A stretch of 64,000 nucleotides of DNA. Source: Acidobacteriota bacterium. Lineage in GTDB: Bacteria > Acidobacteriota > Blastocatellia > RBC074. The stretch covers positions 9,466 through 73,465 of the forward strand of contig JANPFP010000212.1 in the NCBI GenBank assembly GCA_031423495.1. Direction: 5' to 3'. The stretch's first letter is position 1; each line of letters starts with the position of its first letter. The notes beneath the pieces are model-generated. The model saw only the letters and a list, made by a program, of their open reading frames with translations, made no database searches and was not told where the DNA came from. Made by a program: the position numbers and the translations under genes. This document shows positions 198-62,037 of this stretch, in pieces.

Positions 198-833
198 ATG
201 GGACTTTACGCGAAATACATCTTTCCGCACTTGTTGGACTGGACGCTGGGTACGCCGGAGTTCGGCAAATATCGGCGCGCAGCGTTGGCGGCGGCGCGAG
301 GCGAGACGCTCGAAATCGGTTTTGGTACCGGTTTGAACTTGCCGCATTATCCGACGACGGTTACGCGATTGGTGGCGCTGGATTCCGAAAACATGCTGCG
401 CCGCAAGGTCGCCGCGCGCATCGCTGCGTGCAAGTTGCCGGTTGAATTGCGGCAACTCGACGCGCAAGGGCGATTGCCCTTCGCCGATCATTCTTTCGAT
501 ACGGTGGTGACTACGCTAACGCTGTGTTCGATTGAGGACGTGATGGCGGCGCTGGCTCAGATGCGCCGCGTGTTGAAACCCGGCGGGCAGCTTCTTTTCT
601 TTGAACACGGACGCAGCGACGATTTCGACATAGCCGCGCGGCAGGATCGTTTCAATCCATTGCAACGCATCATCGGCGCGGGCTGCAACATGAATCGCCC
701 GATGGATGTGCTGATTCAACAAGCAGGTTTTGAGATCGGCGTAATCGAACGCTTCGTGATGCCCAAAGCCCCGCGCGTGCTGGCTGAGATGTCTCGCGGC
801 ATCGCGCGTCCACGCAGCGTGTCCGTAGCCTGA
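198..833 (+). CDS. class I SAM-dependent methyltransferase
   Basis: ORF track; motifs LEIGFGTGLN (SAM-binding motif I) and VLKPGGQLLFFEH (Methyltransf_11-like); GGAG RBS 8 nt upstream of ATG. Confidence 0.8.
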   Translation: MGLYAKYIFPHLLDWTLGTPEFGKYRRAALAAARGETLEIGFGTGLNLPHYPTTVTRLVALDSENMLRRKVAARIAACKLPVELRQLDAQGRLPFADHSFDTVVTTLTLCSIEDVMAALAQMRRVLKPGGQLLFFEHGRSDDFDIAARQDRFNPLQRIIGAGCNMNRPMDVLIQQAGFEIGVIERFVMPKAPRVLAEMSRGIARPRSVSVA

Positions 834-927
834 CCGTAAGAGAGGGCTACCACAAGGATGCGCCCTTCGGTTCAACGGTGCGCAACGTCAAGGTAGCCCT
901 CTCTTACGGTCAGGCTACGGACACGCT
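815..927. repeat. ~113-bp hairpin repeat element, copy A (36-bp perfect stem 815-851/892-927, 40-nt loop); contains the stop codon of the methyltransferase
   Basis: Left arm cagcgtgtccgtagcctgaccgtaagagagggctacc is the exact reverse complement of the right arm; a second copy is at 52443-52550. Confidence 0.75.
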
Positions 928-1018
928 GCGCGTTGCTTAATTCATCATCACGCCTCGCGCTTGCCGACACTGTCTATGCTGGAGGAGTTATGAACGCGCT
1001 TGGCGAAACGGACTGTAT

Positions 1019-4979: not shown

Positions 4980-7900
4980 TTACTTGATATTCACTTCGAC
5001 GGGATTCGCCCACTTGCCGTCAACTTTAAGCCAGAGCTTGACGAGACCGCTGCCCGCCAACGTACGCGGCAAGAGCAGGTTGGTTTGATCGAGTCCGGCG
5101 AGGCTGCCTTGCTTGTCGAGATACAACACGCTGACTTCAGTACCCACACCAGCGGTGGTTCCGCCGATGAAACATTGCACGTTGCGCAAGTCGCTGCGAT
5201 GGCGAAAGCCCGTGCCATAAAGCACTAAGTAAACCTGATCGGTCGTCGGCCCCAGATCAATCGGCGTCGCAACCATCTTGCTCGTCGTGCTGTCAAAACG
5301 GGCGATGTTCTCATACGTATTAACCCCGTTGCGCACGCGCAGCGCCGATCCGGCGACGACGCCTTGCCCTGAAGCGTTGGACGTGAACAACCCCGGATTG
5401 ACGCCGCTGATCATCAACGCACCGCTTTCCCAGCGTCCGGCGTTGTCGCTGATGATGACTTCGGCAAGGCCGGGCGCGAGTTCAGTTGGCAGCAAATAAT
5501 TCACCTGCGTTTTAGCCACGAAAAATAGCGGCGCGAGGAAGCTGGCTCCGGCGCTGTCATAAATCGTAACCGTCGTACCGCCCAGCGTGGTCGGCAACGG
5601 CAAGCTATTCGCCACCAAAGTGCCGGACGCGAGGTCAGAGCCAAACGCCGCCACAATGCCATCGCGCGTCGCTGACTGATCGCCGTTGTTGCCGTAATGC
5701 GCCGCCGAAACACTGACCGTCACGCGCACTACGCGGCAATCAAGCGCATTCGACGATCCGCCGCCGAGATTCGCCGTCGAAGCCGGATTGAACACAGTCA
5801 CTTTTGCCGTACCCAAATTGGCTACGACTAAATCAGTTGCCGGAATCGTCACGCGCAATTCCATGTCGCTGACAAAAGTCGTCGCACGCTCTGCGCCGTT
5901 CCAACGCACCACGGAATTCGAAAGGAAGTTGCGTCCGTAAACCGTCAGAGTGCGCGCCGCGCCCAGCGCCAGTGCGTCAGGATAAGTCCGCACCGCAGTC
6001 GGCAACGGATTAGCGGTTGCGCTGCCCGCTTGCGTCACGTTCACGGTTTGCCCGGCAATCACCACTTTGAAATTACGTGCGGCTGATGCGGCGTTGGGCT
6101 GCGTCATCAGGGCTACGGTTCCGTTGCCGGTGCCATAAATGCCCGCCGTAATTTGTGCCGCTACGTCGCTGGCCGCCGAAGACCATGAACAACTGTTGGT
6201 CGCCATCACTGAAACATTCGTGCTGCCGCCACCCGCAGGCACGGTCAACGTCCCCGGACTTACGCTGAAGCTGCACGTCGGCGCAGCCGCTTGCGTGATC
6301 GAAAAGGCTTGCCCCAACACCTGAATCGTACCCGTGCGCGCTTGCGTCGTGGTGTTCGTCGCCAGCGAATAACTCACTGCGCCGCGCCTGACGCCGCTCG
6401 CCGTTGCCGCATCGAGCATGATCCACGTCGCGCTGGTGGTCGCAGCCCAACGGCAATCGTGGCCCGTACTCACCGTCACGTTATAAACGCCGCCCGCGTA
6501 ACTGGCGCTATGCGCGACAGGCGTGAAATAGGCCGTGCAACTCACGGGTGCAGCCGCTTGATTCACCGTATAAAGTTTGTCACCGATCATGATCGAACCG
6601 GTGCGCGCGCCGCCGCTGTTCGCCGCGATATTAAAGTTGACTGCGCTGCTCGTCTTGCCGGTAATCACCAGCCAGTCGACGTTGCTGGTCGCGTTGAATA
6701 CGCAACCCAACGGATTGGTCGTCGCGCTCGCCGAGCCTGAGCCTGCCACGGCAGCAACACTGACGACACTCGTCGGCAAGGTCACGCCGCAATTCGCATC
6801 TTGCGACACGATGAAAGTGCGCCCCGCTACGGTCAGCGTCGCTTGCCGCTGATTCCCTGTCGTATTCGGACTCAACGCAAAGCCGACCGTACCGTTGCCG
6901 ACGCCGCTCGCCGCCGTAGTAATCGCCAACCAGCTTTGCCCTGCGGCTTGATTGACCGAAGCTGTCCAGCCACAACCGGCAGTCGTCGTCACCGCCACCG
7001 TACCCAACGAAGCCTGTGAACTGAAGGTCTGCCCGCTGATCGTCGCGTTGTAAGCACAACCACTCGCCTGGGTCAGTGTGAACGTCAATCCGTTGACGGT
7101 AATCGTCGCACTGCGCGCGACGCCCGCGTTGGCCGCGACCGCAAAAACCATTGTGCCGCTGCCGCTGCCCGATGCGCCGCTCGTGATTGTCAACCATGCC
7201 GCGTTGCTCACGGCTGTCCATGTGCAACCCGTACCCGCCGTCACACTGATGCTGCCGGTGCCACTGGTCGCCACCGTTGAAGCACTGGTAACGTTGATCG
7301 TTACCGAACAGTCTCCGGCTTGCGAGACCGTGAAAGACTTGCCGCCGACCGAAATTGCGGCACTGCGCGCTACGCCTGTATTCGCCGCGACGGAATAATT
7401 CACCGTGCCGTTGCCTGTGCCTGTGGCATTCGTGAACGTCAACCAACTCGCATTGCTCACCGCCGTCCAGCCACAACCATTGCCTGCCGTCACGGCAAAG
7501 CTACCCGTACTCGCCGCCGCCGCAACACTCGCGCTGGTCACGCCCAACGTGACGTTACAGCCACCTGCCTGAATCACCGTGAAGGACTGACCGCTTACCG
7601 TAATCGTCGCGGTACGCGCCGCGCCCGTATTCGCCGCGACAGAAAAATTCACCGCGCCATTGCCACTGCCCGACGCACCGCTCGTAATCGTCAACCACGT
7701 TTGATTGCTCACCGCCGACCACGTACAACCAGTTCCTGCCGTCACATTGAAGCTGCCCGTATTGGCAGCCGCCGCGAAGCTTACGCTGCTCGTGTTCAAC
7801 GTGATCGCACAGCCCGCCGCTTGCGTTACTGTGAACGTCTGCCCACCTACGCTAATCACTGCACTGCGGCTCACGCCGGTGTTCGACGTTGCAGAATAAT

Positions 7901-10900
7901 TCACTGCGCCGTTGCCGCTGCCCGACGCACCATTCGTGATCGTCAACCACGACTGATTGCTCGTCGCCGTCCACGTGCAACCGCTTCCCGCTGTTACGTT
8001 GAAGCTGCCCGTACTGCTCGTTGCCGCTACGTTCGCACTGTTCGCGCTCAACGTGATCGTGCAACCACCCACTTGCGTCACCGTGTAAGACTGACCGCCC
8101 ACGCTAATCACTGCGCTGCGGCTCGCGCCCGTGTTCGCCGCGAATGAATAACTCACCGTAGCGTTGCCGCTGCCCGACGCACCATTCGTAACCGTCAGCC
8201 ACGTTTGATTGCTCGTCGCCGTCCACGTGCAACCGCTTCCCGCTGTTACGTTAAAGCTGCCTGTGCCGTTGGTCGCGGCGACGTTCGCGCTCGACGCATT
8301 CAACGTGATGGTGCAACCACCTGCTTGCGTCAACGTGAACGATTGCCCGCCCACGCTAATCACCGCGCTGCGGCTCGCTCCCGTGTTCGCCGCGAATGAA
8401 TAACTCACCGTACCATTGCCGTTGCCCGAAGCACCGTTCGTAATCGTCAGCCAAGATTGATTGCTGGTCGCCGTCCACGTGCAACCATTGCCCGCTGTTA
8501 CATTGAAACTGCCCGTGCCACTCGTTGCGGCTACGTTGGCGTTCGTCGCGCTCAACGTGATCGTGCAGCCACCGGATTGTGTTACGGTGAAAGTTTGCCC
8601 CGCCACCGTAACCGTACTCGTACGCGCTGCGCCTGTGTTCGCAGCTACGCTCAAACTCACCGTGCCGTTGCCATTGCCCGACGCGCCGCTGCTGATCGTG
8701 ATCCAACTGGCATTGCTGGTGGCCGTCCATGCGCAACCCGGATTCGCCGTCACATTGACGCTCGCGGTTTGAATGCCTGCGCCTACGCTGGCGCTAGTGG
8801 CAGACAAACTGTAACTGCAAGCGACCGGCGTGAAGCTCGGCGTTTGCGTGTTGTTGCAACCTGATTTGATAAGCATCAGCGGCCCCGCCACGACACCCGC
8901 CGGAACCGTCACATTGATTTGCGTATCGCTCACCACCGTGAACGACGCGCTGACGTTGTTGCTAAAGAGTACGCTGTTGACGCCCGTGAAATTGCTGCCG
9001 GTGAGATTGACGGTCGCGCCTGCCACCGCGCTGGTGGGCGCGAGGTTCACGCCCGCCGGACAACTTGCCGAGCCTGATTCGAGCAAAAACGAAGCGTCGC
9101 TCATGTCGAAAAAGATATTGCCGACGGCTTCGACCTTGATGCGCGTCTCACCCGAAGAGAGTCCGGCAGGAACCGTGATCGTTTCGCTGCCGTCATTTGG
9201 CGTCGCGCCGAGAATCGTCACCGGAAAGGTTTCGCCGTTATCAATCGAGAGCGAAATTTTCACGTTCGCGCAACTGACCGGCGCGTTGTTGGTGTTGTTG
9301 ACGCTCCACGTCACGGTTTGTTGCGTACCGCCCACCCAGCGCACGCGCGTATCGGGGGCCGTTACCTGAAACGGGCCGGAAGCACCGTCCACGCTTAACA
9401 ACACGTCGTCATCGGCAACGCCGCCGCGCTGGTCGCGTACGATGACTTTGAAATTGAGATTGCGCGAAACGCGCGGCAAATGCTGCGCGACATACAAACC
9501 GTCGGCGTCCTGCAAAGGCGGTTCGTTGTTGTAATCCTGAATCAAAAACAGTTCGGGAAAGAGGTGCTGCGGGCTAAGCGTAGGCGAAAACGGTCGAAAG
9601 ATCGGGCGCGTCGTCGAAGCCGGGTCGCCCTCATCCGTGAAAGCCGGATTGCCGAAACTCGTGCCGCCCGCGTCATATTGTTCCCACGAATAAGTCAGAT
9701 TGGCGTAATCGCCGTTGTCGGAATCGTTCGCCGCTGCCGTCAAAGCGAAAGGCGTGAGTTTGGGAATGCGACGGTCTACGCCCGCATTCACCGTCGGCGG
9801 CGTATTGCCGCTGGGCGTCGCCGTCGAGCAGGTCGCTTCGTTTTGCATGAACTCAGCGATGGCATTCACCGCGCCGCTGTGAAAGTGCAACGCCCGCCCG
9901 AACGCAATGGCATTGCACGAACCGGAATAAGCCATGATCGTGAAGCCGCTGCCTGACTCATAGGCGGTGGTGGCGTTACGCTGCCCCGCGCAATTGCCCG
10001 TGTTGTCGTTGAAGGTGTGATGCGTGTTGAACTGATGGCCGAGTTCATGTGCAATGCGCCCGATATAAAACGGATGCCCTACGCCCACCGAGGTCGGAAT
10101 CAAACTGACGCCGCCACCTTTGTATTCATCTATCACGCAAGCGACGCCGATATAAGCCACGCCGCTCGCGCCCGTGCCCAACACATGGCCTACGTCATAG
10201 TTGGCCGCGCCGATGACGTTGTTAAAGTGCAAACGCGCTTCTTCCAACATCGTGCCGGCGCTGCCGTTGGTGAACGGGTCGCTCGTCGTGTCGTAAATCA
10301 ACTGATCGTTATTAGCCACGAGATTGAAATGCGCCGACAGATCGCGTTCATAAATCAGGTTGACCGCATTCAACCACGTGTTGACCGAAGCAATCGCGCC
10401 CGGCTTATTGCCGCCGCCGAACGCGAGCATATATTCATAGGTCGTCGCCAACGCCAGCCGATAGTTGCGGCGCGTCGCTCCCAAATTAATCACGCTCAAA
10501 TCGCGCGCAGCGGTGTTCTCACGCTGCGGCAAGCCCGGCACTTCTTCGGTCAGGCAATCATATTTGCCCGCCGCGACCGCGTCTTTGCTCTCATAGCTGA
10601 TGTATTGCCCATCGTTCGCTGAACCCACTGGCTCGACGCTATAGGCCGTGTCAGGCGTAGCGATCAACGCATATAACCCGCGCGGCGACCAGGTGAAACG
10701 CGCAATCAGCGCGGGATCATCCAACCCCACGGCGCGATAACTTTTGATTTCAGGAAAGCGTGCGGCTAAGGCGGCTTCCATATTCGGCGAGTCTTCGATG
10801 GCGAAACGCGCGAAGCTGCCATCGGGCAAAGGCAAGGTCACTGTCGGACGCACGCCTTTCGTGTTTTCGAGCGGAGCTTGCGCGAGTTGTCGTTGCCACG

Positions 10901-11162
10901 CGCTACGTTGCAACGTGACGCTCTGAAAGCGCCGTCCCGCCGCCACATTCACCGGCTTGCGGCTGAGGGCGTCGTTAGCCAACGGCAACCAGATGCCATC
11001 GGGCGAACCTTGCGCGGCACTCACCACCGCGTGATGCGCGTTGCCGCTGCTATGAAAAATCAGCCAGCCCATCAAACCTAATCCTAAACATCGAAACAGG
11101 CTGGTTCCGAAAAAGGCTAAACAACGACTCACGGTGTGTGAAAAACTTATGCTCACGGTCAT
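4980..11162 (-). CDS. giant secreted multidomain protein: metzincin-like zinc metalloprotease ([11 protein letters not shown]), about 11 tandem BACON-like Ig domains, Solibacter-type C-terminal domain
   Basis: ORF track (4980-11390); start trimmed to ATG 11162 (MTVSISF…, hydrophobic signal-like N-terminus). HExxHxxxxxH zinc motif; repeated C…W…GNGT…TQ modules; C-terminal …[48 protein letters not shown] resembles the TIGR03437-type Solibacter C-terminus. Confidence 0.8.
5975..8885 (-). repeat. tandem array of about 11 BACON-like domain repeats (~255-270 bp period) inside the giant CDS; boundaries approximate
   Basis: Near-identical DNA blocks (e.g. gtgcaaccgcttcccgctgttacgttgaagctgcc at ~7975, ~8225, ~8475) and repeated protein modules. 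Confidence 0.7.
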
Positions 11163-12127
11163 AGCTCCATAGTTGAGGATGCAACTGAAAATACAGTTGA
11201 AGATGCGGATGCCGAGGGATTGCCTGCGGGGGTGGTGGCTGACTGGGGGCCGACCTCTAAAAGCTGACATATCCGTTCGCGCTGAAACCAGGCGACCGCA
11301 CGGGAGACGCTGCCTTGTGCAACGCGTCTGGCAAGCCGACGCATTGCGGCACGGGGTTTCAAGTGTTTTTTGACGCACGCGCCCTAACACTCAAAGGCCA
11401 TCAGACCTCGCTTCAGTGCGAACGGATAGCTTGCGGGGATGCAAGCTCGATACTTTGGGAAAATAGAGAAAATCGCTCAACAGATCGCCTTGCACGAATG
11501 GCTCAAAAGGCTTTGGCAAAAGGGCAAGGCGCTGAGGTCGTGAGCGACAGCGTTTTACTCAATCGGGTCAAATGGACGGCAGGGAAAAATAGACAAGGCC
11601 TATTCATTTTCAGACGGGCACCACAACCACGCAGCGTAACTGGCATCCCTAACAGTCACGCTGCACCATCACGTCTCTCAAAATGAATAGGCCCTGAACG
11701 AACGGCGCGTGGGGGTGGCATTTCGTAAAAAGTAGGGGGGGAGAAACGAAAGCCGTGCGCCTAAATGGAAGGAATTCCGGCGGGAATTCAACAATTTCAA
11801 AGTGGTTCAAGCTGGAGCCGCAGCACCTCGGGGGCGCGCATCCATATACAAAAAGTTAAAAGAAACAGGGCCGATTATCCCACCAACACCCAGCGTAGCT
11901 CTTTTTCCCCTGCAACGCTGTTGGCACTTGACGTTACGAATCTATGGTTTGGCATCCCTAACAAACCGCAAATCCGTGTGTTGGCAAACTACCAGCCCTG
12001 TTTCTAACTGACAGAGCGATCTTTCACCTTCATCGCAACTCTACCAAGCCACGACGATTAATCCATCCGTCACCAAACACTTGACCTCTCTGTCACCCTA
12101 TAGTGCTGGCACTTCAGTTCTATTACA

Positions 12128-14023: not shown

Positions 14024-17000
14024 TTATGGCTTGCCGTCCCAATTGCCTGCGACTGGCAGGTCGCCGACTTGCCCGAAATTCACGGTGAAGGCTTCGGCAA
14101 CTCTGAAGCTCTGGAAGCGATTCGTCAGCGTAAACTTATCGTTCTTGAATACACCAAACGTGTCTACGCCGTCGCCGTCCCAATCGCCTGCGAGGGGCAA
14201 GGCGTCAGATGCGCCGAACTGTCCCACTTGAAAAGCTTCGAGCGGATTGAAATCGGCCAGGCCATTGGTGAACAACCAGCTACCGAGGCGAAAGATACCG
14301 ACCGTGTCGAAGCCGTCGCCGTTCCAGTCACCCGCCACCGGCAAGTCGCCCGTGACGCCGAAAGCGAACGTGGCATCAGGCAGCGGCGCAGAGCCGTTGA
14401 CGTTCTGCCCGTTCACGCCATTCGTCACGAGAAACAAACCCGCGCGGAATACGCCCGGCGTATCAATCCCGTCACCGTTCCAGTCGCCCGCAATCGGCAA
14501 ATCATTCGACTGACCGAAGACAATCGTTCGGGTGATCGCCTGACATTGCGGCGAGCCGCAACCAGGCACGGGGGGCCGCAAAATCAAAATGAACTGCCCG
14601 ACCGAAGGGCGAAAGATGCCTGCGTCATCGTCGCCGTCACCATCCCAATCGCCCGTGACCGGAAGCGCATCGGAGACAAAATTAAAGTTCACGGTTTGGT
14701 CAGGTGCGCCCGCCGTGTTGGAATTCCGCAGCAAAAAGTCGGTGAGCGCAGGCCGAAAGACCCCAATCGTATCAGCCGGAGTCGCGCTGATTTTGGCGAT
14801 GAACCCGTCGCCCGCGCCGCGAAACGCGCTTTGAAAAACCCCCGGCGTTACCGGCAAATTACCGTTCGCCACACCCGCCAGATAGACATTGCCTCGTGAG
14901 TCCAGAGCGACGCCTTTGGCAAAGGTATCGGCTCCGCCAAACGTCGTTGAATAAAGCAGCTTCGCCGTCGTCGTCGCAGAAACCGTAGCTTCGATTTTCG
15001 CCAGAAAGCTGGAACCCGCCAGATTCGCCGTCAAAGGGTTGACCGAAAGAAAGCTCGCGCCCGATCTCGTCGTACCCGCCACATAAGTATTGCCCGCCTG
15101 ATCAAGGGCGATGTCCAGCCCCGCCTCGCTGCTGTCTCCGCCCAGATAGCTGCAATAAAACAGGGCCGTGCCGTCCGCATTCAGCTTGGCGACGTAAGCC
15201 TCGCCTTCAGTCAACGTCGTTCTAAACGCATTCTTGAGCGGGAACGTACTCGCAAACGAAAAAGTTTGGCCCGTGATATACACGCGTTGCTGCGCGTCAA
15301 CTTTGATGGCCTCTATCGTGTCAACATCACCGCCGCCGAAATAAGTCTGATAGGTCAGCGATGCGGCTCCGCTCGCTTCGGTATCAATCTTGGCGACAAA
15401 GCCATCCGTGAACCCTTTCAGGTTGGATTGCAGCGGCGGCAAAGATTGTCCTGCGGGACTTTTCACGGGCAGGTCTTCCGAAAAAGTGGTTCCGCCCAGA
15501 TAGGCATTGCCTGCGTTGTCGGTGGCGATGTCTACGTTTAATCCCAAACCGGGTGCCGCTTCGATGTCGCTGCCGCCCACATAACTCGCATAGCGCAACG
15601 AACCGTTGCCGCTCAACGCCGGATCAAAGACAGCCACAAAGGCATCTGCCAAAGCCAGACTGCCCAGCGAATTCTGAAAGCCGTTTTTGGTCGGCAGGTT
15701 GTGAGAAAGGGTAAAGCCCGCGATATAGATTTTGTTGGCCGCGTCCACCGCAATCGCCTGCCCTGCATCAGAGTTCCCGCCGCCATAATAGCTGGAATAA
15801 ACCAGGCCATTGCCCGTGGCATTCAACACCGTGACGTAAGCATCGTTACCACGGCACGCTCCCACCAGACACGAAAGAAAGGTGCCATTGCCTTGAAAGG
15901 CTCCGTCGGTGACGGGGAAATCCGCCGTGCCGCGCGTGAAAGTGGCACCGGTCAAACAGGCTTGCCCATTGCTCATCACCGCGATGTCTTCGCCGGTGTC
16001 GGCATTGCGGCTGCCCAGATAAGTGCAATACACGGTGTCGGTTCCGTTGGCGTTGAGCTTGAGTATAAAAGCATCGCCCTCAGCGTCTTTGCGCTGGCTT
16101 TGCAAAGCTCCCTTGACCGGCAAATCTGAAGACAACGTCGTGCCGACGATATAAGCATTCCCCGCCGCATCCACCGCCACAGCCGTAGCAATATCCAGCA
16201 AACTGCCGCCCGCGTAAGTCGCATAAAGCAATTGCGGATCAATCACCAGCGGACGGCTCGCGTCATAAGCGCCCAGCGCAAAACTCACTTCGCGCTTTTC
16301 GTTCAGCACGTATTGGCCCGTCACCATCTCACGCCCTTGCGCACCTTCCTGATAAATAACCGGCGCGTGCTGAATCAGTTCGCCCGCCGAAGTTTGCAAC
16401 ACCAGATTGCCCGCGTCGTCGAGCCGCAGACTTTTCGCGCCTTCAAACCGTAGCTCAATCTGATTGGAATCAGCGCCCGGTTGCACGATGAAGTCATATT
16501 CCAACGTCCGCTGATTGCCGTACCAAACCATGTCTACGCCCGGCCAGACTTCGCGGTATTTCACCTGACGATAAGTCGGCACATCCGTCTGCCACTGGCT
16601 TCGATCATTACCGATCAGGTAATTCGCTTTGCCTTCGAGTTGGTCGAGCGCTTCGGCTGACGGCGCGACGTTCGCACTCACAAGGTTGAGCTTCAGCCAA
16701 CTCCGCGACGGAGTTTCTTTGTCTTTACCGTTCAACGCCAACGTAGCCGCGCCGCCTGACAGATAAAGCGAATAGCCATCGCCGCGCGACAGGTATTCAA
16801 CCGATTTGTCGGTTTGTCCGCGATTGGGTTCAAAGGCCAACGGTAACTTGCCGTAATTTTCCAGCACGCGCGCTTTCGCCTCAGCCTCAGTCGCGCTGCT
16901 CGCCTGCGCTGGCGAAGTGCGCGACCACCACGCCAGCCCTCCGGTTCCGATCAATAAAATAACTATCAATGCCGTTCCGATTAAGGGTTTGCGTCTTTTC

Positions 17001-17026
17001 GCCAACCTGTTGATGAGCTTATACAT
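14024..17026 (-). CDS. large secreted beta-propeller repeat (SBBP) protein with C-terminal FG-GAP/VCBS-like repeats
   Basis: N-terminal TM/signal (LIGTALIVILLIGTGGLAWW); repeated …DIATAVAVDAAGNAYIVGTT.S.DLPV… SBBP units; C-terminal AGDWNGDGxDTxGxFR x5. Confidence 0.75.
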   Translation of the reverse strand: MYKLINRLAKRRKPLIGTALIVILLIGTGGLAWWSRTSPAQASSATEAEAKARVLENYGKLPLAFEPNRGQTDKSVEYLSRGDGYSLYLSGGAATLALNGKDKETPSRSWLKLNLVSANVAPSAEALDQLEGKANYLIGNDRSQWQTDVPTYRQVKYREVWPGVDMVWYGNQRTLEYDFIVQPGADSNQIELRFEGAKSLRLDDAGNLVLQTSAGELIQHAPVIYQEGAQGREMVTGQYVLNEKREVSFALGAYDASRPLVIDPQLLYATYAGGSLLDIATAVAVDAAGNAYIVGTTLSSDLPVKGALQSQRKDAEGDAFILKLNANGTDTVYCTYLGSRNADTGEDIAVMSNGQACLTGATFTRGTADFPVTDGAFQGNGTFLSCLVGACRGNDAYVTVLNATGNGLVYSSYYGGGNSDAGQAIAVDAANKIYIAGFTLSHNLPTKNGFQNSLGSLALADAFVAVFDPALSGNGSLRYASYVGGSDIEAAPGLGLNVDIATDNAGNAYLGGTTFSEDLPVKSPAGQSLPPLQSNLKGFTDGFVAKIDTEASGAASLTYQTYFGGGDVDTIEAIKVDAQQRVYITGQTFSFASTFPLKNAFRTTLTEGEAYVAKLNADGTALFYCSYLGGDSSEAGLDIALDQAGNTYVAGTTRSGASFLSVNPLTANLAGSSFLAKIEATVSATTTAKLLYSTTFGGADTFAKGVALDSRGNVYLAGVANGNLPVTPGVFQSAFRGAGDGFIAKISATPADTIGVFRPALTDFLLRNSNTAGAPDQTVNFNFVSDALPVTGDWDGDGDDDAGIFRPSVGQFILILRPPVPGCGSPQCQAITRTIVFGQSNDLPIAGDWNGDGIDTPGVFRAGLFLVTNGVNGQNVNGSAPLPDATFAFGVTGDLPVAGDWNGDGFDTVGIFRLGSWLFTNGLADFNPLEAFQVGQFGASDALPLAGDWDGDGVDTFGVFKNDKFTLTNRFQSFRVAEAFTVNFGQVGDLPVAGNWDGKP

Positions 17027-50376: not shown

Positions 50377-51153
50377 TCAGCGCACGAGGCCGCTTAACGG
50401 ACTGCTCGCGCTCGCATACAAACGTTGCGGCATGCGTCCGGCGAAGTAAGCGGAACGTCCGGCTTCGACGGCTTTCCGCATCGCTTCGGCCATCTCGCCC
50501 GGATGCTCGGCTTCGGCAATTGCCGTATTCATCAGCAAGCCGTCAATGCCCAACTCCATCGCAAAGCAGGCGTCTGACGCAGTGCCTACGCCCGCGTCAA
50601 CGATGATGGGTACGGCCGTGATCTGTTCGCGCATGATGCGCAGGTTGTTCGGATTCTGAATGCCCAAGCCCGAACCAATCGGCGCGGCCAGCGGCATTAC
50701 GGCGGAGGCTCCGGCATCAATCAGCTTTTTCGCCATAATCAAATCGTCGCCGAAATAAGGCAGCACGGTGAAGCCTTCTTTCACTAAAACCTTGGTCGCC
50801 TCAAGCGTAGCTTCGTTGTCAGGAAACAACGTCTTTTGATCGCCGATGACTTCGACTTTGACCCAGTCAGACAAACCGACTTCGCGCGCCAGCCGCGCCG
50901 TGCGAATCGCTTCATCAGCCGTGTAACAACCCGCCGTATTCGGCAATAGCGCGAAACGTTTCAGATCAATAAAGTCCAACAACGACGGTTGCGAACGGTC
51001 AGTGATGTTTACGCGCCGCACCGCGACCGTAATCATGTCAGCGCCACTGCGGTCAAAGGCTTCGACCATCAGTTCGTTGGTTTTGTATTTGCCCGTGCCG
51101 ATAATCAGCCGCGACTTGAATTCTTTTCCTGCGATGACGAATTTGGTGTCCAT
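50377..51153 (-). CDS. thiG: thiazole synthase
   Basis: Full-length match to ThiG family (…[20 protein letters not shown]…, 258 aa). Confidence 0.9.
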
Positions 51154-51163
51154 AGTCTGCTGT

Positions 51164-51257
51164 ATGGCAACCTGTCAGGTTGCCATGTCTTGAAAGTTCT
51201 TACCTTTATTCAAACGGCTCGCACTGCCAAAGCCATGGCAACCTGTCAGGTTGCCAT
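51164..51257. repeat. pair of 23-bp palindromes ATGGCAACCTGTCAGGTTGCCAT (51164-51186, 51235-51257) between thiG start and the upstream gene
   Basis: Perfect dyads; same core as the 1019-1098 pair. Confidence 0.7.
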
Positions 51258-51268
51258 ACAAATTGAGA

Positions 51269-52414
51269 TTACCGATGTTCCAGCCGCAACTCAAAGCCCA
51301 GCGGCGAACGCAACGTCGCGCTCATCTCATCGCTCGCGGCTTGCCACGACTTCCCTTCTAACTGGCTCGCCAACTGAAAGACTTCTTCGGCGGGCGTACG
51401 GCTGCGCGTGAGCTTATCGTAAAGCGCAACGGGGCAGCGTACCTGAAAACACAGCCGGTCTGATTTCACGCGCTCGTCGGGAAATAAATTCTCTTGCGCG
51501 TTGTTCATCGCCTTGAATAAAAACGGCTGTTCGATTTCAGCGACCAGCCAGCCTTTGATTCTCTTTACCGGAAAAGCTAACTCGCCGCGTACGTCACGCA
51601 ACGCACGACGTTGATCGTAAAGATCAACCGCCGTCAACACGTTCGCCAATTCGTAACAACCCAGCAAAGCGAAATGTTTTGCCAGCGCCAGTTGCGTCAC
51701 GCCCGTCAGCAAATCACGAAACGGAATCTCAGTGAACAGCGGCAACATCTCTTCCCACGTGGGGTCGCTCAAGATCAGCGTCGCCATTTCTTTCGTGCGC
51801 GCTTGCGGCAAAAACAAACCCGCGACCAGCGAATGTTTGAGCTTGTTGCCTTCGCCCGGATTCAGGTTTTGTTTTTGTTCGATGCCGGTCTTGACGGCGC
51901 GCTGCAACTCTTTCAACGAACTCTGATTACCTTTGCATTCGAGCGCGCTGAAGCTCAACGCATTATCGAGAAACAAATAATCGGGCGCTTTCTTCGGCCC
52001 CAGTTTCGTCATCCGTCCCAACTTGAGCAGCTTTGTGCCGAGTAGTTTCACCAACCACTTGGTTTCGACAAACAGCAGCGCGCCAACCTGTTCCGTCAAC
52101 AATTGCGTAGCGACGCCTACGCTGACCTCTTCGCTCAACACGGATTTTTGCTGATGGCTGACTTCGTCCCACTCGCGGCGCAACCTGAAATCATAGGTCG
52201 GCGCGAACGCCCGTTGATAACGCAACCACGCATGGCTGTCGCTCAGGTCGCAACCCGTATAGCGCGGCGGACGTGTCCACAACGCGGCGTGCAACAGGGC
52301 TTGATCGAGATCGAATCCGCCGTTGCCGTGCAGCGCCGCCAACTCTTTCGGCGGACGGCTGCCTGGCCACGTAGGCTTATCAATAATGACAGTGAGTGAT
52401 TTGGTATTCGCCAT
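51269..52414 (-). CDS. hypothetical protein with central PD-(D/E)xK nuclease-like motif
   Basis: 381 aa; …APDYLFLD-x9-ALECKG… fits hhhD…hExK; no other family recognised. Confidence 0.55.
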   Translation of the reverse strand: MANTKSLTVIIDKPTWPGSRPPKELAALHGNGGFDLDQALLHAALWTRPPRYTGCDLSDSHAWLRYQRAFAPTYDFRLRREWDEVSHQQKSVLSEEVSVGVATQLLTEQVGALLFVETKWLVKLLGTKLLKLGRMTKLGPKKAPDYLFLDNALSFSALECKGNQSSLKELQRAVKTGIEQKQNLNPGEGNKLKHSLVAGLFLPQARTKEMATLILSDPTWEEMLPLFTEIPFRDLLTGVTQLALAKHFALLGCYELANVLTAVDLYDQRRALRDVRGELAFPVKRIKGWLVAEIEQPFLFKAMNNAQENLFPDERVKSDRLCFQVRCPVALYDKLTRSRTPAEEVFQLASQLEGKSWQAASDEMSATLRSPLGFELRLEHR

Positions 52415-52442
52415 CGTTAACAGGTGATGGAACAGGTGATGG

Positions 52443-52550
52443 CGTGTCCGTAGCCCGACCGTAAGCGAGGGCTACCTCCGCAATGCGCCTGTTGGTATCA
52501 AGATACGCACTGCCGAGGTAGCCCTCGCTTACGGTCGGGCTACGGACACG
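52443..52550. repeat. ~108-bp hairpin repeat element, copy B (36-bp perfect stem, 36-nt loop)
   Basis: cgtgtccgtagcccgaccgtaagcgagggctacctc / gaggtagccctcgcttacggtcgggctacggacacg; differs from copy A at two stem positions, both compensated. Confidence 0.75.
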
Positions 52551-52553
52551 GCG

Positions 52554-53000
52554 CTATTTTTTATTCAACATCCCCGGTGATTGCCATTGAAAGACGTGAT
52601 AGGTCGCGGGCGTTTTGCCTACGTTGCGGATGCTGTGCATTTGATTGGACGCCTGAAAAATCACCGAACCCGGCCCCACAACTTTAAGCTGCCCGTTGAC
52701 CAGCGATTCAACCGTACCCTCTTTGACAATGATGACTTCTTCCGCCGGATGCTTGTGCGGCGGATGCGCTTCTTGCCCCGGATTCAACGTCGTGATGTGG
52801 CATTCCAACTCATCCAGCGTCGCCGTCTGAGCTTTCAGCACCTCGCGCCGTGCGCCAGAATTCGTCTTTTTCGCATCGAACGAATTCCAGTCGAAGATGG
52901 ATGAACCCATTACTTTGTTTTGCGTACGCGCCACATTGACCGCGCTCAACGTGAATAGCACCGCCGCGCTTGCCACCAATAAATCTCTTCGTGTAATCAT
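52554..53000 (-). CDS. cupin domain protein with Tat-type signal peptide
   Basis: N-terminal RRDLLVASAAV twin-arginine motif; cupin_2 core (…HSIRNVGKTPATYHVFQW). Confidence 0.7.
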   Translation of the reverse strand: MITRRDLLVASAAVLFTLSAVNVARTQNKVMGSSIFDWNSFDAKKTNSGARREVLKAQTATLDELECHITTLNPGQEAHPPHKHPAEEVIIVKEGTVESLVNGQLKVVGPGSVIFQASNQMHSIRNVGKTPATYHVFQWQSPGMLNKK

Positions 53001-61746: not shown

Positions 61747-61804
61747 GAGGCGAGTTAACAGGTTCTGGAAATTCTGGAAGCTCCAACGGAGCGCGGGAAT
61801 ATAG

Positions 61805-61937
61805 CCCAGGGTGAAGCCCTGGGTTAGGTGGCGATAAATAACAAAAGCCCTGAAAGGGCGTGATAAATCGTTGGCTATCACGCCCTTTCAGGGCTTTTTG
61901 AAATTTCGGTTGCGTAACCCAGGGCTGACACCCTGGG
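61805..61937. promoter_or_regulatory. two dyad elements CCCAGGG-N5/6-CCCTGGG (61805-61823, 61918-61937) flanking the terminator; candidate enhancer (UAS) sites for the NtrC-family activator
   Basis: cccagggtgaagccctggg and cccagggctgacaccctggg read directly; located 60-190 bp upstream of the sigma54 promoter. Confidence 0.35.
61843..61900. terminator. strong bidirectional rho-independent terminator (19-bp stem) after the response-regulator gene
   Basis: gccctgaaagggcgtgata…tatcacgccctttcagggc flanked by aaaa/ttttt. Confidence 0.7.
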
Positions 61938-62037
61938 CTATTTTATTTTGCCCCGTTGGGGCACTCAGAAGTTCTCGTTTGACGTTTGATTGCCAACTAA
62001 AAACTATCGCGCAGCGTTTGCCTGTCAGCCGAAGCTG

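Follow-up and report, generated by a model that had tools for sequence, protein, structure and literature searches.

REPIN-type hairpin doublets in Blastocatellia, probably mobilised in trans by a RAYT-like Y1 transposase

Analysis of a 64,000-nucleotide stretch of DNA from an Acidobacteriota bacterium (Blastocatellia, lineage RBC074; GenBank assembly GCA_031423495.1, contig JANPFP010000212.1, positions 9,466 to 73,465 of the forward strand; this whole 64-kb stretch is referred to as the window) revealed two long hairpins which are very probably copies of a non-autonomous REPIN-type element, that is, a doublet of repetitive extragenic palindromic (REP)-like units, moved in trans by a Y1 transposase that resembles the REP-associated tyrosine transposases (RAYTs) and is of the class 3 or TIRYT-like kind. 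The transposase proposed to move these doublets would act on single-stranded DNA and would be encoded by the source genome itself. The hairpin family, here termed family A, seems to be undescribed so far and is of an ordinary type; a literature search found no paper linking REP elements with Blastocatellia, Chloracidobacterium or Pyrinomonas.

A preliminary description of the window had placed the two copies at 815-927 and 52443-52550, and both are present there, the real extent of copy 1 being slightly wider. Copy 1 (813..932, no strand assigned) was delimited by an inverted repeat (I2), folds, BLAST bounds and empty orthologous sites, with BLAST similarity to copies in other genomes placing its edges at approximately 813 and 932-937. 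It comprises a left 33-nt unit GTGTCCGTAGCCTGACCGTAAGAGAGGGCTACC (819..851, plus strand), detected in a unit scan with one mismatch to the consensus, a 40-nt spacer ACAAGGATGCGCCCTTCGGTTCAACGGTGCGCAACGTCAA (852..891, plus strand), which was defined by alignment and belongs to a class common to approximately 20 copies in other genomes, and an inverted right unit (892..924, minus strand), in which a mirrored A pairs with the T at unit position 13 and a mirrored T pairs with the A at position 23 (alignment pairs 25/108 and 35/98, respectively). Its perfect stem of 39 bp (813-851 with 892-930) consists of an outer CGCAGC/GCTGCG and the unit. Copy 2 (52443..52550, no strand assigned), delimited by an inverted repeat (I1), a unit scan with no mismatches and folds, has its units at 52444-52476 (plus) and 52517-52549 (minus), a spacer at 52477-52516 and a perfect stem of 36 bp (52443-52478 with 52515-52550). 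The inverted repeats reported by the repeat finder are 52443-52494/52499-52550 for I1 and 813-863/880-930 for I2, and the two copies were additionally paired as a direct repeat (D8) of 80% identity.

The repeated unit is GTGTCCGTAGCCCGACCGTAAGNGAGGGCTACC, and each element, approximately 106-120 bp long in both window copies, is an inverted doublet of this unit around a spacer. The unit contains its own 7-bp palindrome, GTAGCCC/GGGCTAC, with a 12-nt loop, and many copies of the family have an outward extension of the stem, GCGCGAAGC/GCTTCGCGC or variants thereof. The two stem differences reported earlier, each mirrored in the opposite arm, are found at unit positions 13 (T vs C) and 23 (A vs C), and the loop blocks ATGCGCC...GGT...CGCA are indeed shared by both spacers. 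Regarding folding, copy 1 has a minimum free energy of -102.8 kcal/mol as RNA (z = -14.4) and -60.6 kcal/mol as DNA (z = -16.5), and copy 2 of -98.8 kcal/mol (z = -14.3) and -59.8 kcal/mol (z = -14.6), respectively; neither copy was equalled by any of 200 shuffles. A 20-nt arm pattern allowing up to three mismatches matched only these four arms in the window, where no match was expected, and when the window was compared by BLAST with all loci described below, the element alone matched.

Scanning species-representative genomes with the arm pattern yielded 49 loci, nearly all of them in metagenome-assembled genomes (MAGs) of Acidobacteriota, Blastocatellia, Chloracidobacterium or Pyrinomonadales (approximately 13 MAGs), many at contig ends, and a metagenome scan using the inner half-unit detected at least 120 loci, mainly of sister families. 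The possibility that only the two window copies exist can therefore be set aside, and the at least 36 complete doublets across approximately 13 MAGs, accompanied by 24 lone or truncated units in the window and the 49 loci, support the earlier view of a dispersed REP/MITE-like repeat family (MITE, miniature inverted-repeat transposable element). Copy number varies widely between MAGs, with 16 strict doublets in JANNUY01 (which has at least 16 family-A doublets) and 5 in JAYSVR01; the countable family-A copies of the source genome are the two within the 64 kb. Nearly all copies are situated in short intergenic spacers. The internal spacers fall into discrete classes of 40 nt (giving a 106-nt element, and including both window copies), 49 nt and 8-18 nt, and copies of one class have a conserved spacer sequence, which is found in both orientations. 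The metagenome sister families, which are abundant in soil metagenomes, keep the core GCCCGACCGTAAGGGAGGGC with different outer stems. Among them (L056-L174, e.g., L076, L089, L094, L114 and L116) are 79-nt elements consisting of GGGGCA[C/T/G]TAGCCCGACCGTAAGGGAGGGCTCCC, a 13-nt spacer and the inverted arm; in many of these copies one arm reads CACTAG where its partner reads CATTAG, so that a stem otherwise free of mismatches retains a conserved C·A asymmetry (G·T on the complementary strand). An integron attC or CRISPR nature was considered informally and set aside, no search aimed at an integrase or at cas genes having been made, since the copies are isolated single doublets in ordinary spacers between unrelated genes and do not form an array.

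The compensatory pattern that had been noted between the two window copies generalises across the family. At unit position 23 the two arms agree in 27 of 30 strict doublets (A/A in 16, C/C in 10, G/G in one, mismatched in three), and at position 31 they agree in 24 of the 30. When 20 copies with the 40-nt spacer were aligned, pair 35/98 occurred as AU (10), CG (8), UG (1) and UU (1), pair 43/90 as AU (10), GC (7) and GU (1) with two broken, and pair 25/108 as CG in 19 copies and UA in one, window copy 1. The covariation score was above all slid controls and all but one of 500 shuffles. Arms of the same element differ by 1.07 mismatches on average vs 2.13 between different elements (14 positions outside the fixed search pattern), and none of 10,000 permutations matched this likeness within elements. 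The two polymorphisms occur in all four combinations, and both states of each coexist in single MAGs. At 43/90 and 25/108, pairing is restored within the long hairpin, whereas the small hairpin within the unit would acquire a T·G pair, and it is therefore the pairing of arm with arm, or the copying of arm from arm, that is preserved. Arm-to-arm covariation is thus real, and its cause could be selection, repair within the hairpin or the spread of compensated lineages. Selection or gene conversion, as proposed earlier, would be a reasonable cause, but several genomes contain both major variants, so that the spread of a few lineages already compensated could account for much of the signal. Bertels and Rainey (2011, PMC3116915) had reported such compensation to be frequent in REPIN hairpins.

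Regarding insertion, presence of the element is polymorphic, three orthologous sites in relatives (on contigs L176, L179 and L180) being empty. Copy 1 overlaps the end of a gene encoding a SAM-dependent methyltransferase (198..833, plus strand; Pfam Methyltransf_11), and the claim that it supplies the stop codon of this gene is borne out: the TGA (831-833) is inside the left arm, and copy 1 provides the last six codons (RSVSVA) together with the stop. This TGA arises from a copy-specific C to T change; with C, the frame would end two codons later at a TAA within the arm. Close orthologues listed in a protein search mostly have 205-208 aa, vs 211 aa in the window, with a C-terminus of ...GIARPQTS or similar. 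The syntenic contigs L176 and L179 have the gene order methyltransferase, cupin (108 aa), glucosamine isomerase and TPR, with a methyltransferase-cupin spacer of 31 nt that lacks the element; in an alignment with the window, they are nearly identical to it on both sides, as far as 812 on the left and again from 1113, with the left breakpoint of the insertion at 812/813.

Copy 2 lies between a cupin gene (52554-53000, minus strand) and an open reading frame (ORF) of 381 aa (ORF381; 51269-52414, minus strand), 3 nt (52551-52553) past the cupin stop codon and 28 nt upstream of the ATG of ORF381. The statement that both copies sit at 3' ends of genes thus holds insofar as both follow a stop codon, but copy 2 is equally just upstream of a start codon. 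In the closest relative at this site (L180; MAG JANNUY01, contig JANNUY010000692.1), whose ORF381 is 92% identical, the cupin-ORF381 junction is a 4-nt spacer without the element, and a family-A copy is present in the next spacer, between ORF381 and thiG. A 12-nt tandem duplication (AACAGGTGATGG twice, 52419-52442) abuts copy 2 before the ORF381 start codon in the window and is absent from the empty site in L180.

The check for target-site duplications proposed earlier was carried out on 34 copies and found none, as expected for Y1 transposition. With the ends set at the edge of the 33-nt unit, 27 of the 34 copies had no flanking match and seven had a match of 2-3 nt; with the extended stem taken as the boundary, there was no flanking match in 25 of 34 and nowhere one longer than 2 nt. 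In a 45-nt range, the longest direct repeats followed the distribution of a between-locus control, except for the copy in L180, which, unlike the other 34 copies, is flanked by the direct repeat GGAACATCGGTAA(A)TTGC (13 nt exact, 17 nt imperfect). Long flanking direct repeats as a cryptic form of target duplication were rejected, L180 being the single case and the other 34 copies matching the control.

A gene encoding a Y1/HUH transposase of 175 aa adjoins family units at ten loci representing eight distinct places. Five of the loci (L006, L025, L040, L100 and L118, the last two being metagenome loci) had been picked by DNA pattern alone and have the Y1_Tnp gene directly against the units. Three others (L050, L051 and L053) were picked by protein homology only (58-67% identity) and are alike in that a plus-strand unit ends 25 nt before the ATG and a minus-strand unit begins 18 nt after the stop codon; the remaining two are short additional contigs from places already represented, L052 from that of L051 and L054 from that of L053; L054 shows both units and L052 the upstream unit only, before the contig ends. 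Inverted units bracket the transposase gene in the four complete places that were checked (L040, L050, L051 and L053/L054). In L040 the two units enclose approximately 570 bp coding for a frameshifted protein of approximately 175 aa, whose homologues in L006 and L025 are intact; this gene (1520-2045) is split by the frameshift, with residues 1-142 and 143-175 in different frames by tblastn, and may be a pseudogene. L006, L040 and L050 have the neighbouring genes GH92 and DUF1501 in common, which suggests that the transposase gene is vertically inherited at a fixed position. The unit variant follows the transposase lineage, as seen in the comparison of L053 with L050: the units flanking the L053 gene are GTGTCAGTAGCCCGCACGTAAGTAAGGGC, a variant also found in doublets of L009, L027 and L049. 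The product called at L053 1-2138 is a protein of 986 aa with acetyl-CoA-synthetase-type AMP-binding domains and a Y1_Tnp Pfam match in its middle, so that a whole or partial transposase gene may lie within a housekeeping gene or be fused to it.

The 175-aa protein matches Pfam Y1_Tnp (PF01797) with 30.2 bits against a cut-off of 23 and has a weak match to the NCBIfam IS200 model. Among 5.8 billion proteins it has 1460 homologues, with Pyrinomonadaceae, Blastocatellia and Acidobacteria as hosts, many of which are labelled 'REP element-mobilizing transposase RayT' by JGI. Alignment revealed invariant NHxH, WSRHGSTRYLW and Y-x4-Q motifs, with N101, H102, H104, Y162 and Q167 invariant or near-invariant (alignments A2 and A3). 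Searches of PDB by sequence, using the single sequence or a profile, gave marginal matches only; for an AlphaFold model (pLDDT 82), the best 30 Foldseek matches in PDB were all IS200/IS605 TnpA proteins or E. coli TnpA_REP (4er8), with E-values of 2e-5 to 3e-3.

Known systems provide close parallels. REPINs are REP doublets that form hairpins and adjoin RAYTs (Bertels and Rainey, 2011, PMC3116915), and family A shares with REPIN/RAYT systems, and with the E. coli REP/TnpA_REP 'REPtron', an inverted doublet of a short unit around a less conserved spacer that folds into a long hairpin, a dispersed, extragenic multi-copy distribution, compensatory changes, the lack of target-site duplication, a cognate Y1/HUH gene flanked by family units (in relatives) and, as a candidate parallel, a GTAG just 5' of a short palindrome within the unit. 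It differs in its host, Acidobacteriota (Blastocatellia) and not Proteobacteria, in the greater length of the unit with its 12-nt loop, in the weak hairpin of the transposase-adjacent units and in a protein that has Y-x4-Q in place of the proteobacterial RAYT motifs. In Acidobacteria, atypical hairpins of up to approximately 600 copies (Solibacter usitatus) flank class 3 Y1 genes (Quentin et al., 2018, PMC6006769), and an acidobacterial TIRYT/TIRtron group has been described (Di Nocera et al., 2013, PMC3733652). As characterised there, class 3 TnpA_Y1 and TIRYT proteins resemble the present one in host phylum, in length (approximately 175-178 aa), in their HUH motif NHVH and tyrosine motif Y----Q and in being bounded by inverted repeats or hairpins that also form a genomic repeat family. 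The genomes covered there are those of Terriglobia, Solibacter and Koribacter and not of Blastocatellia or Pyrinomonadales; the tyrosine motif is YVVNGQ in the present protein vs YV[VI][AENY]EQ (G in place of E), the 5' CnGA 'foot' reported there for class 3 was not recognised with confidence, CCGA occurring inside the unit, and a doublet organisation like that of REPINs with fixed spacer classes is not described for class 3 or TIRYT in the parts of the two papers that were consulted. With IS200/IS605 elements and their PATE derivatives, family A would share the predicted Y1 HUH fold (best Foldseek matches of the model to ISDra2, IS608 and IS200 TnpA), hairpin-containing ends, the lack of target duplication and short non-autonomous derivatives. 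It is unlike IS200/IS605 in that both ends are inverted copies of one unit vs distinct left-end and right-end hairpins, and in that the transposase gene has conserved synteny in at least three genomes, not many sites, and is found without tnpB.

Taken together, the element would be a non-autonomous miniature mobile element made of two inverted 33-nt REP-like units around a short spacer. The enzyme moving it would be supplied in trans by the genome, namely a Y1 (HUH) transposase of the RAYT/TIRYT kind that acts on single-stranded DNA, with 'class 3 TnpA_Y1' as its closest counterpart, and its own gene would be bracketed by an inverted pair of the same unit. If it works like the enzymes of IS200/IS605 and E. 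coli TnpA_REP, it may recognise the folded unit where DNA is single-stranded, such as at a replication fork, and cut beside it, so that the doublet is moved or copied without target duplication. We propose that the long hairpin and its compensatory changes exist because the doublet is the replicating unit: both arms would have to remain copies of one recognition sequence and able to pair, and variants changed in both arms would spread as lineages, with mismatch repair within the hairpin possibly also homogenising the arms. Effects on genes would then be side effects of insertion, copy 1 having swapped the end of the methyltransferase and copy 2 having wedged itself between the cupin gene and ORF381.

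Several observations weigh against this explanation. No transposase gene of the 175-aa kind was detected by tblastn in the 64-kb window, and the trans-acting partner gene is demonstrated in relatives only. The match of the protein to the NCBIfam model REP_Tyr_transpos (25.8 bits) is far below the cut-off of 80, so the protein does not qualify as a canonical proteobacterial RAYT. Next to the transposase gene, the units end in ...GGGCGCC and not in ...GGGCTACC, and their small hairpin folds no better than shuffles. The site of copy 1 is more complex than a clean insertion, in that approximately 34 nt of ancestral sequence correspond to approximately 300 nt in the window, consisting of the family-A element, an 80-nt linker and a hairpin of a second family (family B, see below); relative to L176 and L179, the methyltransferase has thus lost its last three codons and its stop to copy 1. 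The small hairpin of the family-A unit (GTAG followed by the 7-bp palindrome) has -6 kcal/mol with z = -2.8; as a candidate for the recognised structure, the small hairpin was rejected because it is significant for the REPIN-type unit only and not for the transposase-flanking units.

A function at the RNA level, with the hairpins kept as structured RNA, as terminators or as 3' hairpins that stabilise mRNA, is a very unlikely alternative explanation, even though the hairpins are very stable, both window copies come after the stop codon of a gene, the conserved GCGCCCTTCGG block of the spacer resembles a UUCG-type loop and E. coli REPs are known to stabilise upstream mRNA (Di Nocera et al., 2013, PMC3733652). 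Between co-directional genes the spacer has the same orientation as transcription in seven cases and the opposite one in five, counts that are approximate since genes were called by an ORF heuristic, so there is no strand bias, and the two window copies are opposed to each other relative to their genes. Neither hairpin is followed by a T-run on the transcribed strand (the sequence is GCTGCGCGTTGCTTAATTC after copy 1 and, on the transcribed minus strand, CCATCACCTGTTCC after copy 2), and a terminator scan called neither element. No Rfam 15 family reached its gathering score for the elements, all matches being sub-threshold ones to models of eukaryotic miRNA precursors, the best with 58 bits vs 95. 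These results, together with the orthologous sites in relatives that lack the element, leave the terminator or structured-RNA reading of the preliminary description unsupported; moreover, at least three unrelated spacer classes occur on the same arms, and some copies lie between divergent genes.

The elements could also be MITEs derived from an insertion sequence (IS) of the DDE type, with terminal inverted repeats and a cut-and-paste transposase. Their size, long terminal inverted repeats, dispersed multi-copy spread and insertion polymorphism would agree with such an origin, and an IS4/Tn5-like IS is repeatedly joined to the unit; the ends of this IS (CTTGTCATTACCC...) are, however, unrelated, and it interrupts the unit at CCGTAAG and is not bounded by it. 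As target-site duplications are lacking and inverted units were found to bound no gene other than that of the Y1 transposase (L040, L050, L051 and L053/L054), an origin of this kind appears exceedingly improbable. The presence or absence of the element among close relatives at three sites, its widely varying copy number between MAGs and its tight link to a transposase gene likewise make it highly improbable that the hairpins are host-domesticated sites for protein binding or nucleoid organisation, kept for a cellular function like the bacterial interspersed mosaic elements (BIMEs) that bind IHF or gyrase. Host functions of REPs and BIMEs are documented in enterobacteria, and in favour of such a role some copies are orthologously conserved between MAGs, with L003 and L043 having flanks in common.

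Mobilisation of REPIN-type doublets by a Y1 transposase would explain a conspicuous repeat in Blastocatellia and Pyrinomonadales genomes and MAGs, together with contig breaks apparently caused by it, and would provide genome annotation with two defined features, the 33-nt unit and the partner gene of 175 aa. The REPIN/RAYT picture, so far drawn from Proteobacteria, would come to include a phylum abundant in soil as well as the 'class 3' Y1 transposases, which are poorly understood; current understanding would not be overturned, and the window offers a clean example of an element rewriting the 3' end of a gene with a new C-terminus and stop codon. More tentatively, and on balance doubtfully, an active partnership of REPINs with a 'class 3' Y1 transposase may extend across Blastocatellia and Pyrinomonadales, with pairing actively maintained and hairpin families repeatedly colonising the same spacers. 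Active maintenance would here mean selection for the hairpin as transposition substrate, or mismatch correction within the hairpin, and not mere inheritance. If true, this would provide a second, phylogenetically independent model of the persistence of REPIN populations.

The second hairpin-doublet family, family B, is present in the window at 1012-1105 and 51160-51261, with an arm palindrome of GCAACCTG(T/A)CAGGTTGC. Between its two copies the sequence changes symmetrically (CGCAACC..GGTTGCG vs GGCAACC..GGTTGCC). Each of them stops 7-20 nt before a start codon (that of cupin at 1125 and that of thiG at 51153) and is at most 1.2 kb from a family-A copy. Family B was detected neither in the 49 genome loci nor in the JGI metagenome scan (no matches) and is absent from the orthologous sites in L176 and L179; its tie to family A is adjacency in the 64-kb window only. 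The family-A doublet of L180 (5157-5262) sits in the ORF381-thiG spacer exactly where the window has family B (51160-51261), and different hairpin families have thus colonised the same spacer. Regarding ORF381 itself, no Pfam or NCBIfam match was found and 30 homologues were detected among 5.8 billion proteins; it is kept immediately upstream of thiG-dnaJ in L180-L183, and a D...ECK stretch, judged by eye, looks like a PD-(D/E)xK nuclease motif. A composite transposon consisting of family A, ORF381 and family B was ruled out, given that ORF381 is resident beside thiG-dnaJ in L180-L183 and that in L180 it is present without family A upstream.

The IS4/Tn5-like IS was found inserted in a family-A unit at CCGTAAG at five loci in three MAGs (approximate positions: 4085 in L018, 4816 in L037, 1610 in L033, 97 in L029 and 318 in L039), which suggests that it targets the family-A repeat; its transposase (L033, 1697-3136), with Tnp_DNA_bind and Dimer_Tnp_Tn5 domains, is the sole DDE transposase met. 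The only Rfam family detected in the window in gathering mode, away from the elements, is the Acido-Lenti-1 RNA (RF01687) at 61918-61963 (44.8 bits vs a gathering score of 37), which lies inside two nested long inverted repeats (I4 and I5; 61768-61974). Other repeats in the window include six tandem repeats of approximately 252 bp (63-75% identity) at 7056-8768, within an ORF of 2136 aa (4980-11390, minus strand), and a periodic repeat of approximately 141-165 bp at 14026-14674, inside an ORF of 1000 aa (14024-17026).

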